Source: Spirochaetaceae bacterium
GTDB lineage: Bacteria > Spirochaetota > Spirochaetia > DSM-2461
Direction of reading: 5' to 3'
Assembly (NCBI GenBank): GCA_965224705.1
Contig: OZ245056.1
Location: 2,080,001-2,144,000 of the forward strand
DNA length: 64,000 nt
In this document: one piece after another, positions 36,001-45,000 of the stretch
Layout: each line of letters starts with the position of its first letter
Numbering within the stretch: position 1 is the first letter of the stretch
Made by a program: the position numbers

Positions 36001-39000
36001 GTCAATGCCATTGTAGCTAGTCAGGATGATGCCGTAGTAACCCGCGATCACCCAAAGATCATCGGCGTGGTGCACATCAATGAGGTTCTCCTTCATCCCG
36101 ATTGAGCTAATGACGGCGGGATTGGCCCGCTGCGTCCAGTCAATCCCATCGGTACTGGTCAGGAGGGTACCGGAGGAACCCACAACTACCCACAGGCCAT
36201 CGGCATGATGCACTTCATAGAGGTACTCCGCCGTCCCGGTGTTTTGCTCCATCCAGCTGATGCCATCGGTGCTGGTCAATATGGTGCCGACACTACCCAC
36301 AGTCACCCACAGGCCATTGGCGTAGCGCACATTAGTGAAGGCCGCCGTCGTTCCGCTGTACCGTGCCGTCCAGCTGATTCCATCAGGGCTGGTCAGGAGG
36401 GTACCGGAGTAACCCACAGCCACCCACAGGCCATCGGCATAATGCACATCATAGAGGTATTCCGTCGTTCCGCTGTTCCGCTGCATCCAGCTGATGCCAT
36501 CGGTGCTGGTCAATATGGTGCCGACACCACCCAAGACCACCCACAGCCCATTGCCGTAACGGGCATTACTGAGGTTCCTTAACATCGCACTCCCCCTTTT
36601 CGTAAGCCTGTTCGAGTTCCGACCAATTTGCGAATCCGATATACAGGGCGATATCCCGGCGGATTCTCGGTGATTGGCGGACGCCTGCGATCACCCGTTC
36701 AACGGTCGTCTTTCCGTAATCGCTGTTGTTGGCGAAAGATGTAATCGATTCGCCTTTTCTTGCCATGTGCTGCGCGATGTATGCCCGTAGATCTTTCTTT
36801 TTTTCCATGCATTTCTCCTCTTAGAAAATCCCGCCTGAGGCTCAATGCCTCAGACGGGGTGGAAATTCCATTTTTAAGATGGCCACCTTTAACTTCTTTT
36901 CGCATAACTACTTCTATACCCCCGCCATTTAGGGGGTTTCAGGGCTATTCCATTTTTTTCATACCTCGGTCGCGTACCCTGACTCTCGGGACCGCATTTA
37001 CCCTGCCTCCTACTCACAACCCCTTTCCGGTACCCATACTCGTCGTACGCCCGAGTATGGCCCGGCCATCGGCGCTTTCTATCAGGCAGGGGGTTAACAG
37101 ACACCTTTAAGGCTGCCTGTTTTTCTTGCTTCTCTAATCTCCTCCTTCTTTTCCTTTAATGAACGCAACCCAGATTGTCGTGCGTGTCGTCTTATGGCCG
37201 AACAAAGGGGATTCAGGGGTCAGTTTCAGGATCTGTGACACGGGAATTTCCTTTGTGGACCATTTTAGAATTAACACACCGTATGGTTTTAAGACGCGGA
37301 AACACTCGGCAAAGCCGCGTGTCAGAACAGTGCGCCAGTTATCGCCCAGAGTGCCGTACTTCCTGGCTGTCCAGCCGTTTATTCCATTTCGGCGGTGATA
37401 ATGCGGGGGGTCAAACACAACAAGCCGGAAGGTTTCATCTGTGAACGGAAGTTCTGTGAAATCGCCAGCGATATCCGGGTCGATTAACAGTTCGCGAAAG
37501 CCGTCTTTGCTGCTCCTGTCCTTGAGGGTGCATCGCTCTCTCCGCTTATCCAGGAAGATTGCCCTTTCATCTGTTTTGTTGAACCAGAACATTCTTGATC
37601 CGCAGCAGGTATCGAGTACTGGCGGAAGAACGCTGGGCAATCTGTCCTTTTTCATACTTTCCCTATCCCTTTCATGCCGATATAATAGGCATAACCTCTA
37701 TTAGAGGGCGTGTAGATAATGTAACAACACAAGCATTTATTGTCAATGAGTTTGTTGTTATTTTTTGGAGTTTATTGGCTTTGAATAGTTATTTATCTAG
37801 AATAAAAAGAATTATCGAAGAAAAAAAAATTACTGAAACTGCATTTGCCAAGGCTATCGGATCACATCAAGCAACAATTAATGCAATGTTTCAGCGTGGT
37901 ACAAACCCTCGTTCAGACTTATTAGAAGCGATATCAAAGACATTTACAGTTTCAGAGAAATGGCTCTTAACCGGCGAAGGCCCCATGTACCAGGACGAGC
38001 CGGGCTTCCCAAAGCCGCAGAGCATCCAGCATCTCAACGGGCATATAACGGACAACCCTGATGAGGAGGGGGCCTTTGTGGTGCCGATGCTGGAGCAGTC
38101 TGTTTCGGCAGGGAAGGGGAGCCATCTGGAGGATGATGATAACATCGCCGGATATGTTGCCCTGCCGCCGGCCATCACGGCTCATGGAGCTGCACTGGCG
38201 GCTCTCCCTGTTCGGGGTGATTCAATGTATCCGACAATTGATAATGGTGATATGGTGGTATGCGACGGGGGCGGTTATGATGGGGAAGGTATCTACGTCC
38301 TTCGCATGGATGGGGAAGCTCTCGTAAAGCGGCTGGCTAAGCGGCCCGGCGGTGTTATGGTTATCTCAGACAACGGCAGCTACCCGGATTTCGAGGTGTC
38401 CAGGGATACTCCGCTTGATGTTATTGGAAGGATTCGGGCGGTTGTGAAGGTGGTGAAGTGATATGAAATAGAAAAGATTCTGAGGTGATGGATGAGAGAA
38501 AATAGATTGAGCTATAGAATTCTATTGCTGCAGCTCATATAAACAATGGGCAGCTAAGCTGCGAGGAAGGAGAAATGGAAAAAAGAAATTCGGGAGTAGA
38601 TCAGGAAATAGTAGAAGAAATCTCAAAATGCAAAACAAGGGAAGCACTACACTCTGTCTTTGAGGTACGCGGCCTTAATGATGTTAGGGAGAAAAGACTT
38701 TATCTCAAGGCCTGCACTGGTGAGATCGCAACATATTATGAAGATGGCTCTGATGATTTGACTGATGATCAACGATACCTTGATGATGAGTTTATGTTTC
38801 TAGACGGAACCTGGAGAGCACTTTCTCAATGAGTTATGATAAGATACGTAAATCTATCAATGAAATTATAGCTGGTAAACATAGTGGCAAAGATCTTTCA
38901 GCGGATCAGATCAAGAACTTCATTAATGCATTTAAATCACTACTCGCTCCAGCATTAAAAGATTCAATATTTGCACACTATAAACATGCCATAGAATATC

Positions 39001-42000: not shown

Positions 42001-45000
42001 TCGGTTTTGAAGTGAGTAAATCAGGATTCTCGTTTCTCTCTATTGCTTACTCCTTAGAAAATCCCGCCTGAGACTTAAATGGCTCAGACGGGGCGGAAAT
42101 TTCATTTTGAGACGGCCATCTCTAACTCTTTGTCCTCATAACTATTTTTATACCCCCGCCATTTAGGGGGTTTCAGGGCTATTCCATTTTTTTCATACCT
42201 CGGTCGCGTGCCTTGACTCTCGGGACCGCATTTACACTGTCTCCTACTCACGCCTTTCCCGGCACCCATACCCGTCGCGCGTCCGTGTATGCTCCGGTCA
42301 TCGGGCTTTCTATCAGACAGGGGTTAACAGACAGCCTTAAAGGTGTCTGTTTTTCTTGCTTCTCCAACTTCCTCTATGCCGATATAATGGATATAGACTA
42401 TGCTGGAAGAACATGTAAGTAAGTTAACTCAATATCGGGGATTTGTCAACCCGGTTCTTTATTTTTTTTCGGGAATCAATCCCTTTGAGCGAATATGTAT
42501 TTAGATTAAAACAAATTATAAACGGAAAATCAGTGGGCAACATCCGCATGGGTAGGGAAGCTTTCATAAAGCGGCCTGACGAAGTCATAGTATTTTCGAT
42601 AATATCAGGTATCCGACCGACGAAGTATCCAAGGAAGTCCCTCTTGATGTCGTTGGCCGGGTCAGGGCGGTTGTGAAGGTGATGAAGGGGTAAAAGTAAA
42701 AGTGATTAAGAATTTTGTTCATTCGATGAGCTATAATGAGTTGCATAAATCTATCAAAGAGGAAGAATTATGAATACTATTGGTATCGGTAAAGTTGTAG
42801 TGGATAATACCAAACCTGGTTGGAATTATCCCCATTTTCATGTAATTCTTTTCAAGGAGAACGGAGATAACTCTTTTTACGCATATTGTATGGAACTCGG
42901 CATTGATGCTTTTTCGGAAGACTCTGCAAAAGCAGCCTTTTCTGAAATTGCGGCCAATGTATTAGATGACATCAACCAGTATGCCAATGAAGATTCTCTC
43001 TTCAAATGTCTCCTGGATATCGCCCGGAGTGATCATAATGATGTTTTCTGGAAAGAGTATCGGATTGCAGAAACAGAGCTTGCACAATATGGCGAAGACC
43101 TTGGAATTCATTTTGAAAGGAACGGCAGGGCAGCCGTGACTAATCAGGGTTTCCTAAGTATTAAACCAACTCCTCCGCCAATTGAGCAACAGCATGACGC
43201 TGCTCATCAGTGATCGCTGTATAATGCTCTGTCATATCCACTGACGAATGCCCTGTGAGTCTACGCAGCGCGTGATCAGCCACTCGGCCTCTCAGCATTG
43301 AATTATACCAATGCCGCCAGGCGTGAAAAGAAAGTCCTCGTTTTTTTATTTCATCAGGGGCTATGCCGACTGTTTCAAGCATGTGTTTATAGGTATTCGA
43401 GATACTGCGTTTCCCAATTGGCTTGTCAGGCGACGAACCCCAGAAGACGAAGTCTCCCCGCCATGGATTCACTGAGGCCAGCTGGTGTAAGGCTTCAACC
43501 GTTCTCGACGGAACGGGGACAATTCTGGGCTTGTTCCCCTTGGGAAGTTTCAGGCCCTCCCCATCCTGCCAGTTGCGCTTTACATCTATCCAGTCATCAT
43601 GAACACAATCAACTTTCAATCCTCGGCATTCGCCGAGTCTCATTCCTGTTGTCGCGGCCAGGAGGTTTATCGCCTTCTGCCGGGGATCGGTCCATTCCTG
43701 CCCAAAAAATGCACGGACTTCCTCCGGGCGAAGTATCACCCTCTCCCGTCTAGTTACGGGAAGCCGTTTAATTCTCTTGGCGGGATTAACCGATATCAGC
43801 CCCAGCCTCTCCGCCTCATTTAAGGGTACAGTCACTGCCTGCATAATCGCGTTGACACGTCTGTTGGAGATCCCCAGGGTTGAGAGCCAATGGATTATTT
43901 CTTCCATTAGCATAGCGTTTACTTTCCGCAGCCGCAGCGATTCCAACTTCCTAGAACCAAGCCAGTCTACCACTTTGTGAACAGCGCTCCTATTTGCTTT
44001 TATATAGACAGCCGACATCGGCCGTCCCATGGAATGCCTGTTTTTGAGATGGTGCCCATCATCTGACCAGAAGCCGATAAGGTAATTGGAGAAAAGAGGA
44101 TTTTCATTTCCGGTATTGATTCCAAAGCGCTTATACCATTGTGCTGCAATGGCATCGGCTCCCGCCTTGCTTGCCGGCGAGAGATGCTCCGCGTCACGGC
44201 CCAGCTCATTGCGCATTGACCCCGCAGATCGCCAGCAGGAATAATCCTGTTTGGCCGCATCCCAGAAAGCCGCGTAATAGTTTTTGAAGCCCTTCCGCCT
44301 GTACAGTATAAAAGCTTTACGCATCATGAGAACTATAAGCTTGATAGAAAAGCTAGTCAATAAACTAGTCAATATGAAAGCCATAGATTTCATTGTGGTG
44401 TGTAGTTGTGATTAATTTCTTATTCCACAATGGGTTAAGGTATGCCTGGAAGAGGACTCGAACCTCCACGAGCTTGCGCTCACTAGTCCCTGAAACTAGC
44501 GTGTCTACCAATTTCACCATCCAGGCAGGATGTGTATAGGCGAGAGTACCTTCTAGGTGGATGTATGTCAATTACTGCACAGGGTTTTCATGCAATCTTC
44601 TTTGTGATGGATTTCTGATCCCTCCCTGCTTATTCGTACTTTTAGGATTTCTCCATCCTTTTCCTCCCCCACCCACACATTCTGACAGGAGCCTGTAAAA
44701 TAACGGATACTCAATTTCTACCGGATCAGATGTCAGCTTTCAGATTCCGGTGCATTTTCTTGTGACCGCTATTCTAAGGAGTCTGTCGGACTTCCGCCTC
44801 ATGGCTCGATTTTTGCCCTTCTCTCCAGAAGCAAGCCTCCTGCTTGCTTCTGGAGAGCCGCCTTCGTTCGTTTTCGCCGCCATCCGTGGCGGCTTTTCCT
44901 CGCTATCGCTCGGCACTCTCTCAGGATGCGAGTCCATAGACTCGCATCCCCTGTTGCTGCGTTGCCAAAATACTCACGTAGCCCAGCTACGCTCCGTTTT

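Follow-up and report, generated by a model that had tools for sequence, protein, structure and literature searches.

How does a temperate phage come to hold two copies of one repressor cassette that differ only in a block spanning the promoter, the operator-like sites and the DNA-binding domain, and what might a lysogen gain from keeping both? How immunity is switched when repressor and operator must change together is described as poorly understood (PMC6550527). We analysed a window of 64,000 nucleotides, the first of which is position 2,080,001 of contig OZ245056.1; all coordinates below count along this stretch. An initial annotation placed a prophage with 57-bp att repeats at tRNA-Leu, and this frame was confirmed: the direct repeats are spaced by 40,559 bp, only two copies exist genome-wide, and the tRNA gene overlaps the right one. 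The 40.6-kb prophage is apparently intact.

3883..3939, no strand: left att repeat, 57 bp, at the left end of the prophage (repeat search)
32138..34356, minus: SSB, Sak4-like annealase and exonuclease, forming a phage recombination module (PHROG 7778, 124, 1218)
36566..36808, minus: first early gene, a small HTH protein, BcepMu gp16-like below cut-off (PHROG 925)
42770..43213, plus: 147-aa ORF without a family match (profile and family searches)
43161..44393, minus: tyrosine integrase (profile match)
44442..44527, minus: tRNA-Leu(CAG), whose 57-bp end 44442-44498 is the right att repeat

Atlas searches returned no usable family for the 147-aa ORF or for the 85-aa ORF listed below, and the idea that the former is HicB-like gained no support.

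Inside the prophage a unit of 2,617 bp occurs twice, head to tail, in the order structured leader, methylase, early promoter, CI-type repressor, 85-aa ORF and M78 gene. A single att pair and a single integrase are present; the repeat is internal to the prophage, as opposed to whole elements in tandem. The earlier description of a 2.6-kb cassette present twice and identical outside about 300 bp holds: positions 36915-37714 and 37991-39592 are 100% identical to copy 2, with zero differences over the 2,402 bp of shared span, and all 96 differences are confined to 37715-37990 (276 bp, 35%).

37134..37655, minus: DNA methyltransferase, copy 1 (PHROG 954, E 8e-64; PADLOC MTase_II)
37715..37990, no strand: variable block H1, with early promoter, operator-like sites, RBS and HTH of repressor 1 (copy alignment)
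37718..37746, minus: leftward promoter P1, TTGACA-17-TACATT, 10/12 (promoter scan)
37724-37737 and 37745-37758: operator-like 14-mers of cassette 1 (sequence comparison)
37781..38461, plus: repressor cI1, 226 aa, TTG start, HTH_3 and Peptidase_S24, with Ala110-Gly111, Ser148 and Lys183 (Pfam, motif)
38575..38832, plus: 85-aa ORF without a known family, coupled to the M78 gene, copy 1 (family searches)
38829..39398, plus: M78/IrrE-type metalloprotease-like gene (HELGH), copy 1 (Pfam, family searches)
39751..40272, minus: DNA methyltransferase, copy 2, identical (copy alignment)
40332..40607, no strand: variable block H2 (copy alignment)
40335..40363, minus: leftward promoter P2, TTGACA-17-TATATT, 11/12 (promoter scan)
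40341-40354 (perfect palindrome) and 40362-40375: operator-like 14-mers of cassette 2 (sequence comparison)
40398..41078, plus: repressor cI2, 226 aa, with linker and S24 domain identical to cI1 (Pfam, alignment)
41192..42015, plus: identical second copies of the 85-aa ORF (41192-41449) and the M78 gene (41446-42015) (copy alignment)

The 96 differences divide into 28 among the 66 positions 5' of the repressor gene and 68 among the 210 of its coding part, where 15 codons carry synonymous changes and 34 of the 70 third positions are not the same; all 12 substitution types are present. A diversity-generating retroelement was considered and rejected, as the differences are not adenine-specific (37/96 at A in copy 1, 22/96 in copy 2); no reverse transcriptase was found among the 30 prophage proteins scanned. 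A reservoir of silent cassettes was rejected as the HTH source, since the genome holds only the two cI genes, a relic and weak matches, with no further donors. The closest proteins to cI are P0003 and P0005, located on contigs of 42.6 kb and 43.5 kb respectively. In the N-terminal domain cI1 and cI2 are identical at 31 of 60 residues and each agrees with P0003 at 32 of 60; over the next 115 residues they are identical throughout (115/115) and match P0003 at 100 of 115. Across the 276-bp block, the copies are as diverged from each other as either is from the repressor of this third phage. The block is too diverged to postdate the duplication, and would thus have come by recombination from a sister phage.

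Both repressors exceed the Pfam cut-offs for HTH_3 and Peptidase_S24, and cI1 matches PHROG 4 (E 5e-49). The Ala-Gly cleavage site and the Ser/Lys dyad are present in both, as judged by motif and by alignment to UmuD, so that an SOS response should remove the two repressors alike. The predicted recognition helices, HQATINAMFQR in cI1 and SQGSINSMFRR in cI2, have Gln, Ile, Asn, Met-Phe and Arg in common and are followed by the segments QRGTNPRS and RRDTVPKV respectively. The corresponding helix of P0003 (SQGTFNNLFRRD) is cI2-like, hence a type-2-like repressor exists in a relative. As the C-terminal domains of cI1 and cI2 are identical, mixed dimers should form, and the shared dimerisation domain could let the two repressors poison each other, a point that counts against the main explanation proposed below.

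The operator-like 14-mers overlap both leftward promoters of the best-scoring class, and in cassettes 1 and 2 they occupy equal offsets (-16 and +5) from a common -35. In cassette 1 two asymmetric sites make up an inverted pair with 11/14 matching positions, a level reached by 5 of 300 shuffles, while cassette 2 combines a perfect 14-bp palindrome with a 12/14 copy that, as an inverted pair, is not significant (42/300 shuffles). The operator region of unit 3 gave no signal (106/300 shuffles). Of the three different palindromes proposed initially, only that of cassette 2 was therefore recovered as such; likewise, the leftward arm of the postulated divergent promoter was found, but the promoter scan called no rightward promoter for either cI1 or cI2. 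Sites are alike at 9-10/14 across cassettes and at 11 and 12/14 within a cassette, and in cassette 1 the inner half of each site is similar to half-sites of cassette 2. Within the prophage, the cassette-2 palindrome is matched with at most two mismatches only at its own two sites, and none of the six 14-mers has a convincing secondary site there. It is plausible from these sequences that cI1 and cI2 are heteroimmune, with partial cross-recognition possible given the resemblance of the operators and the modest difference between the helices. This possible overlap, the shuffle result for the cassette-2 pair and the lack of a called rightward promoter all weigh against the main explanation proposed below.

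The boundaries of the repeat lie in three leader copies that share a 61-bp identity, denoted A.

36810..37144, minus: leader 1, a structured early leader (fold z = -4.3, 0/100 shuffles)
36830-36858: terminator-like hairpin ending leader 1 (hairpin search)
36915..36975, no strand: 61-bp identity A, copy 1 of 3 (sequence comparison)
39436..39761, minus: leader 2, a hybrid whose left part equals leader 3 and right part leader 1, joined in A (39532-39592)
42053..42374, minus: leader 3, an older paralogue about 85% identical to leader 1, with A copy 3 at 42149-42209

For leader 3 the fold is not better than that of shuffled sequences (z -0.9), so the claim of structure rests on leader 1; Rfam yields the tRNA alone, with no credible match for the leader. 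Leaders 2 and 3 show, at their left ends, a possible stub of the first early gene, with equal RBS spacing and ATA in place of ATG, although the resemblance is weak and A-rich. Leader 2 arose by crossover within the 61-bp identity, taking its left part from leader 3 and its right part from leader 1, and a hybrid leader joined in this way is the mark of an unequal crossover. Beyond leader 3 lie the remains of a further unit that is devoid of a methylase.

42421..42449, minus: relic promoter P3, with -35 intact and -10 TAACTT (inspection; not called by the scan)
42485..42693, plus: repressor relic that keeps about 14 codons of the N-terminus, has lost the HTH and most of S24, and ends in a frameshifted C-terminal part (alignment)

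This unit had been read as yet another HTH/operator version, but it retains only the -35, the N-terminal codons and the frameshifted end. Because the HTH is deleted, unit 3 cannot supply a specificity, and it is a relic rather than a third immunity type.

We consider it somewhat probable, at roughly 55%, that homologous recombination between sister temperate phages differing in a minimal immunity block gave rise to the prophage, and that with its stacked cassettes the lysogen would resist two sibling types. The cassettes would have been stacked when two sister genomes that differed in immunity type underwent unequal crossover at the leader; in an alternative order, duplication would come first and replacement of one block would follow. 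The agent was probably either host RecA or the phage Sak4/SSB/exonuclease module (PMC5928155). In the lysogen, cI1 would hold P1, the driver of the real early operon, while cI2 would hold P2, now predicted to drive only a methylase copy and leader 2, leaving cI2 free to repress incoming type-2 phages. Dual immunity thus appears the likeliest effect of the stack. Loop-out via the 800-bp left identity would put block 2 in charge, and via the 1,602-bp right identity block 1; with both routes possible, the array could resolve to either immunity type. Unit 3 may be what is left, after decay, of an older module that was displaced similarly. If the repressors are heteroimmune and stacking does give dual immunity, phages could switch immunity in a concrete way, by duplication and subsequent loop-out, and how many sibling phages a host strain excludes would depend on which genes a single prophage carries.

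It is very improbable that the array is an assembly artefact, in which two single-cassette variants from two strains or elements were threaded through the 61-bp repeat, even though the repeat is seamless, so that a short-word graph alone permits a single-cassette path, related elements are abundant in the sample, and no listed contig piece spans the array. Exact-match contigs from four sequencing runs were placed on the stretch, among them X3, X1 (possibly the source data) and X4 (a run of that study too). Were the sample a mixture, flanks and shared parts should be equally deep. In X1, however, the left and right flanks have depths of 7.0 and 6.7 against 15.1 and 15.3 for the shared parts (ratios 2.16 and 2.28), and the variable blocks, computed from depth bins, lie at about 7.9 and 7.7-7.8, with H1 plus H2 equal to the shared depth within 4%. 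This fits a tandem pattern of 1:2:1:1:2:1, not a mixture of single-cassette strains, and agrees with the contig depth first put forward as that of a true duplication. By hand arithmetic on bin 42041-42360, the 61-bp A has a depth of about 21, or three copies' worth, and the X1 contig ends (36944, 39561, 39563-40331 and 42180) are those of the 31-mer graph predicted from the stretch. Only duplicated parts of the array survive in X4, as three exact contigs, all of depth 2 (37564-37714, 37991-38983 and 38983-39592). Their ends fall at the bases predicted for one long molecule across both copies, with end 37564 taken from the data; two single-cassette molecules would extend them to 44400, yet they stop at 39592. 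Runs X1 and X3 also contain related elements, at depth 13-17, whose leader, cI end and integrase are variants. Such a relative cannot account for the extra depth: in X3, where it reaches that level, depth over the methylase and M78 parts does not exceed 2. Counting against the main explanation, the X1 flank depth is just 0.74, and the shared depth 1.6, of the integrase depth (9.45; host 9.05). The unit is present twice per molecule, and the data support a true duplication carrying promoter/operator/HTH blocks that differ between the copies, joined to a linker and S24 domain that do not.

A genuine duplication could still be transient and unselected, a fresh unequal-crossover product heading for collapse or decay whose second repressor affords no useful protection. 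We regard this as unlikely, though a serious contender: identity throughout the shared span leaves no time for selection to show, unit 3 illustrates that a displaced repressor gets deleted, and few or no stacks turned up in the loci and phage records compared. On the other hand, X1 depths reveal no sizeable collapsed fraction despite perfect identities that invite loop-out, exact prophage pieces are present in 4/4 runs examined, and related prophages co-occur at higher depth, so that a second immunity has possible targets. It is doubtful that the repressors are mesotypic, with overlapping operator sets, such that the stack mainly raises dose or widens one range, possibly via mixed dimers on the asymmetric cassette-1 sites. 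The cross-cassette likeness of operators and half-sites and the common helix residues would favour such overlap, and graded immunity between related phages has been described (PMC6550527); against it, the block has sharp ends and the operators vary in step with the HTH, likeness within cassettes exceeds that across them, and the post-helix segments differ. Retention for cargo dose, either of the methylase or of the ORF85 and M78 genes as a toxin-antitoxin or defence unit, would render the repressor difference incidental. The methylase has strong family matches, and the ORF85-M78 pair occurs without a repressor in two relatives (G003 and G012). Nevertheless, we judge this highly unlikely, as it leaves the promoter-operator-HTH block unexplained as the sole difference, the 85-aa ORF has no defence-system match in PADLOC and the M78 gene scores only E 0.0045 there.

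A broader form of the recombination model, which we offer tentatively, holds that this phage family maintains a polarised immunity array: modules would be added on the early-gene side by recombination at the conserved structured leader, and older ones pushed towards the integrase, protecting the lysogen against their own type for a while before they decay, as in unit 3. Stacking would then be the normal route of immunity switching without a repressor/operator mismatch, and one lysogen could exclude several sibling types and release progeny of either type by loop-out.

A cI search gave matches in 36 of 61 genomes, our own included, with a best outside match of 32%; the leader was found in 0/37 family genomes and the major capsid in 0/400 class genomes at E 1e-20. 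The locus scans reached distant relatives only, and no single-cassette parent with either exact block was found in these searches. Among 260 non-own loci, only 95 of them at least 12 kb long, 225 have an S24 match; one of the 225 has a second (L252), a separate short ORF and not a cassette copy. Direct repeats of at least 200 bp occur in 6/260, none over the repressor, and 0/321 isolated phage records had two places. That relatives showed no stacking counts against the main explanation. Of 1,431 records with a match, consulted for stacked C repressors in P2-like prophages of E. coli, the 60 listed included eight with two places, and in none of the six of these that were inspected was there a stack at the place given. 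No tandem near-identical repressor cassettes inside one prophage were found in the searchable literature, which is mostly without subscription and older papers. In how it works, the array resembles the known cases of immunity theft and mixed CTX rstR alleles. As a natural near-isogenic snapshot, the locus brings together in a single genome two repressors whose linker and dimerisation/cleavage domain are identical, each with its matching promoter-operator set.

In published accounts of immunity theft, LRRHood carries a second repressor in a small cassette between 29-bp direct repeats (PMC3029335), and in Mcgavigan an acquired second repressor confers heterotypic superinfection immunity and has a single binding site, in its own promoter (PMC12700041). 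The present array is similar in that direct repeats flank the extra cassette, here as three leader copies with the 61-bp identity, and in that candidate sites for the extra repressor lie only at its own promoter. As reported, however, those stolen repressors stem from an unrelated phage cluster and are unlike the native one, whereas here the second cassette copies the native one save for the 276-bp block, head to tail and with the S24 domain in common, and could take over the early operon by loop-out; the closest outside N-domain is that of P0003, the remaining cassette being the phage's own. CTX-phi and RS1 likewise form near-identical tandem copies with different rstR alleles that give heteroimmunity, and strains occasionally hold several rstR types, but the repeated items described are whole filamentous prophages or satellites at the integration site (PMC7326730). 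Here, what is repeated is an internal 2.6-kb unit of one tailed prophage, and the exchanged block divides a two-domain CI gene at the edge of its HTH.

The imm434 and imm21 hybrids exemplify exchange of the lambdoid immunity region. As in lambdoid and P2-like phages, a CI-type HTH and S24 repressor here faces an early promoter with paired operator-like sites around the -35, and repressor and operator change together by recombination. Immunity-region exchange is described for lambda/434 (PMC6550527) and for P2-like groups (PMC3448106). As a rule such exchange substitutes one region for another, so that a genome retains a single one (0/321 phage records had two places), whereas here both are kept, and the block is only 276 bp long and lacks cro. 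In contrast to the cI-OR-cro switch, a methylase and a 330-bp leader intervene between the promoter and the first small HTH gene, about 900 bp away.

ImmR/ImmA and IrrE-type pairs comprise an M78 HExxH gene downstream of an XRE repressor, an arrangement also seen here. The earlier label of ImmA-like was not upheld: the Peptidase_M78 match is barely over cut-off (24.2 vs 22 bits), the pair occurs without a repressor in the two relatives mentioned, and the gene looks like cargo rather than an ImmA antirepressor. A further difference is that the repressor here has a cleavage domain (S24) of its own, and the travelling partner of the M78 gene is the 85-aa ORF, not the repressor.

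The whole window lies on one contig of 3,005,944 bp. Its prophage is bounded by a 57-bp direct repeat, with one copy starting at 3883 and the other at 44442; the latter forms the end of tRNA-Leu(CAG). Open frames were found for the integrase, primase/helicase, Mor-like activator, terminase, head, capsid and tail genes, and the prophage was therefore judged to be an apparently intact element. Homologues of two cassette genes carry the source label Spirochaeta sp., and a more distant repressor homologue is labelled Treponema sp.; these labels make a spirochaete the probable host. 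Self-comparison of the window with an offset of 2,617 bp gave no differences over 36915-37714 and 37991-39592, with 96 differences confined to the 276 bp between these identical stretches. The two units contain the following features.

Each unit, minus strand: leader and DNA methyltransferase, the latter by family matches.
Each unit, plus strand: repressor of 226 aa (cI1 or cI2) with HTH_3 and Peptidase_S24, by domain matches.
Each unit, plus strand: 85-aa ORF and M78-type (IrrE-type metalloprotease-like) gene, by open frames and domain search.
37715-37990 and 40332-40607: variable blocks of cassettes 1 and 2.

The variable block starts a few bases from where the leftward transcript is predicted to begin and carries a strong predicted leftward promoter, matching 10/12 (P1, cassette 1) and 11/12 (P2, cassette 2) consensus bases. 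Two 14-bp operator-like sites lie in each block at equal offsets from the common -35. The block also takes in the ribosome-binding site and the HTH, ending within the conserved WLLTGEG motif, and is the predicted minimal piece able to carry immunity specificity. No rightward cI promoter was called by the promoter scan; a TATAAT at 37681-37686, which recurs in each of the three units, could be part of a face-to-face cI promoter.

The initial annotation held that the cassette is duplicated in tandem, and this is borne out by depth ratios in run X1, by piece ends in run X4 and by the lack of differences outside the 276-bp block. Because the repeat is seamless, a short-word graph also permits one cassette per molecule, and this single-cassette path speaks for an assembly artefact. 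Contigs from 4 of the 8 listed runs were compared with the window. In X1, possibly itself the source data, the ends of the exact-match contigs agree with those predicted from the window's 31-mer graph. The shared parts had depths of 15.1 and 15.3, the left and right flanks 7.0 and 6.7, the variable blocks approximately 7.9 and 7.7-7.8, the integrase 9.45 and the host 9.05. Were single-cassette strains mixed in the sample, flanks and shared parts would have to be equally deep; X1 departs from this by a factor of two, and such a mixture therefore fails. The 61-bp identity common to all three leader copies has a depth of ~21 in X1, three copies' worth, by hand arithmetic ((7.74 x 320 - 181 x 6.7)/61) that assumes the rest of its 320-bp bin belongs to that piece. 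Flank depth in X1 is 0.74 of integrase depth, and no large collapsed fraction is visible. X4 (same study, other sample code) has just three exact pieces within the array, 37564-37714, 37991-38983 and 38983-39592, all at depth 2. This is exactly the set predicted for one long molecule through both copies, with one end taken from the data; the piece in question measures 151 bp, as long as one short read. Two single-cassette molecules would, from the 31-mer graph, have extended into the right flank. No piece among the contigs listed for the four runs spans the whole array. The half-depth flanks of X1 and the absence of X4 pieces from the right flank both argue against an artefact of assembly, which we regard as very improbable.

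The leaders suggest how the array arose. Leaders 1 and 3 are ~85% alike (285/337 columns), and leader 2 combines the left part of leader 3 with the right part of leader 1, switching within the 61 bp common to all three. Such a hybrid is the trace expected where leader 3 in one genome has crossed over unequally with leader 1 in a second. Divergence of the blocks in place is impossible, because they differ at 34/70 third codon positions and carry 15 silent codon differences, with 0 differences elsewhere. The N-domains of cI1 and cI2 share 31/60 residues, and each shares 32/60 with P0003, the repressor of a related phage on a 42.6-kb contig; over the next 115 residues cI1 and cI2 are identical (115/115) and match P0003 at 100/115. 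Diverged N-domains followed by like residues point to variable blocks that are old alleles shifted by recombination. P0003 itself ends at residue 181 in an unrelated tail, ahead of the catalytic Lys, a putative frameshift or sequencing error. The crossover could have joined sister phages already of different block type, or duplication could have preceded replacement of one block; both orders would agree equally with the data. The prophage encodes a Sak4-like annealase, an SSB and an exonuclease, and PMC5928155 attributes single-strand annealing and low-level recombination support to Sak4 with its SSB. Retroelement mutagenesis as the source of the block differences was ruled out, since these lack adenine bias. 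No further donor copies of the block were found in the genome.

Variant contigs of related elements in X1 and X3 (depth 13-17) span the repressor 3' part, the 85-aa ORF, a 147-aa ORF and the integrase. They link a cassette-type repressor end to the end typical of unit 3, the eroded third cassette, at joints 38413 to 42643 and 40912 to 42620, which suggests an intact gene of unit-3 type in a co-occurring relative. At 42723-42760, just ahead of the 147-aa ORF, 38 nt repeat the start of the M78 gene (79%); this junction recurs in the related X3 element, with ~2.5 kb extra between the 147-aa ORF and the integrase. Unit 3 retains leader 3, an intact -35, a poor -10 and ~14 codons of the repressor start, nearer cassette 2 than cassette 1 (51 vs 41 of 64 columns). 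It has no methylase, its C-terminal repressor end is frameshifted, a large deletion takes out the HTH, and its operator symmetry is not significant (reached by 106/300 shuffles). The third operator and HTH specificity that had been proposed thus falls away, and unit 3 is a relic.

We place at roughly 0.55 the probability that the locus is a fresh recombination product stacking two immunity blocks, which would probably confer dual immunity; that it is an unselected intermediate seems to us unlikely, if the most tenable of the other readings. The P1 transcript would pass methylase 1 and leader 1 (predicted fold z = -4.3, terminator-like hairpin present) and enter the first early gene and, beyond it, the genes for replication; cI1 would therefore have to hold lysogeny, by repressing P1. 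P2 would face methylase 2 and leader 2 only, where the hairpin is retained, and a 14-mer search found no convincing additional site for either repressor anywhere in the prophage; cI2 would thus be largely available against incoming phages that carry type-2 operators. A cI2-like helix is present in P0003. Self-cleavage residues (Ala-Gly, Ser, Lys) occur in both repressors, and mixed cI1/cI2 dimers are expected because the C-domains are identical. Single-cassette progeny of either type would result from loop-out to one or the other side of the blocks. Counting against clean heteroimmunity, the operator-like sites share 9-10/14 bases across cassettes. Under 434 numbering, cI1 and cI2 agree at two of four contact positions and show small exchanges at the other two. 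These likenesses favour overlapping repressor specificity, to which we give a low probability. Duplication for cargo dose, through a second copy of the methylase or of the 85-aa ORF and M78 pair, is scarcely credible.

The 85-aa ORF and M78 gene are themselves best read as cargo. They occur together without a repressor in 2/37 family genomes, and the earlier ImmA-like label for the M78 gene was dropped on this ground.

Window 38575-39398: 85-aa ORF and M78 pair.
G003:C59:146-993: the same pair in a genome of the genus.
G012:C2:976618-977404: the same pair in another genome of the genus.
G002:C215:7500-8335: 85-aa ORF preceding a different, 180-aa ORF in a third genome of the genus.

The coupled pair is possibly an undescribed toxin-antitoxin or defence pair.

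The stacked cassettes would work like immunity theft. In LRRHood, the foreign repressor lies between 29-bp repeats (PMC3029335), and in Mcgavigan, deletion of the acquired repressor abolishes heterotypic immunity with lysogeny kept (PMC12700041); the second cassette of this prophage, in contrast, is not foreign. The likeness to CTX lies in different rstR alleles (PMC7326730), but the repeat in this prophage is not a whole element. Immunity-region exchange is established for lambdoid and P2-like phages (PMC6550527 and PMC3448106); one copy is left there, whereas this prophage keeps both. A second repressor-like match was found in 1/225 loci and 0/321 phage records, both sets being distant relatives in which a diverged second copy could escape detection. 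A spot check of E. coli records showed no stack at the matched place (0/6). Our literature searches turned up no description of tandem near-identical repressor cassettes within one prophage.

Several other repeats were seen in the prophage. TGTTCCACA-type repeats, some direct and some inverted, cluster at 28660-29070 just 3' of the primase/helicase gene, in a pattern that resembles an iteron-type replication origin. A 41-nt motif occurs three times ahead of late-gene blocks (8755-8795, 23307-23347 and 27946-27986), once directly behind the Mor-like gene, and its copies are candidate late-activator sites. (G/A)CTAGTCA-type motifs repeated within both prophage ends (4020-4070 and 44346-44384) are likely integrase arm sites. 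A 643-aa early-region protein (34654-36585, minus strand) is made of 39-aa repeats, and its gene has 117-bp units in common with the tail-tip gene (8797-14058, minus strand), the closest match reaching 97% over 300 nt (8922-9221 vs 35397-35696); it may act as a donor in repeat exchange or as a decoy that blocks the receptor. Beyond the prophage, a putative REP- or MITE-like host repeat at 44770-45065 has more copies at 52956 and 58877, and its depths in X1 and X3 add up to thousands.
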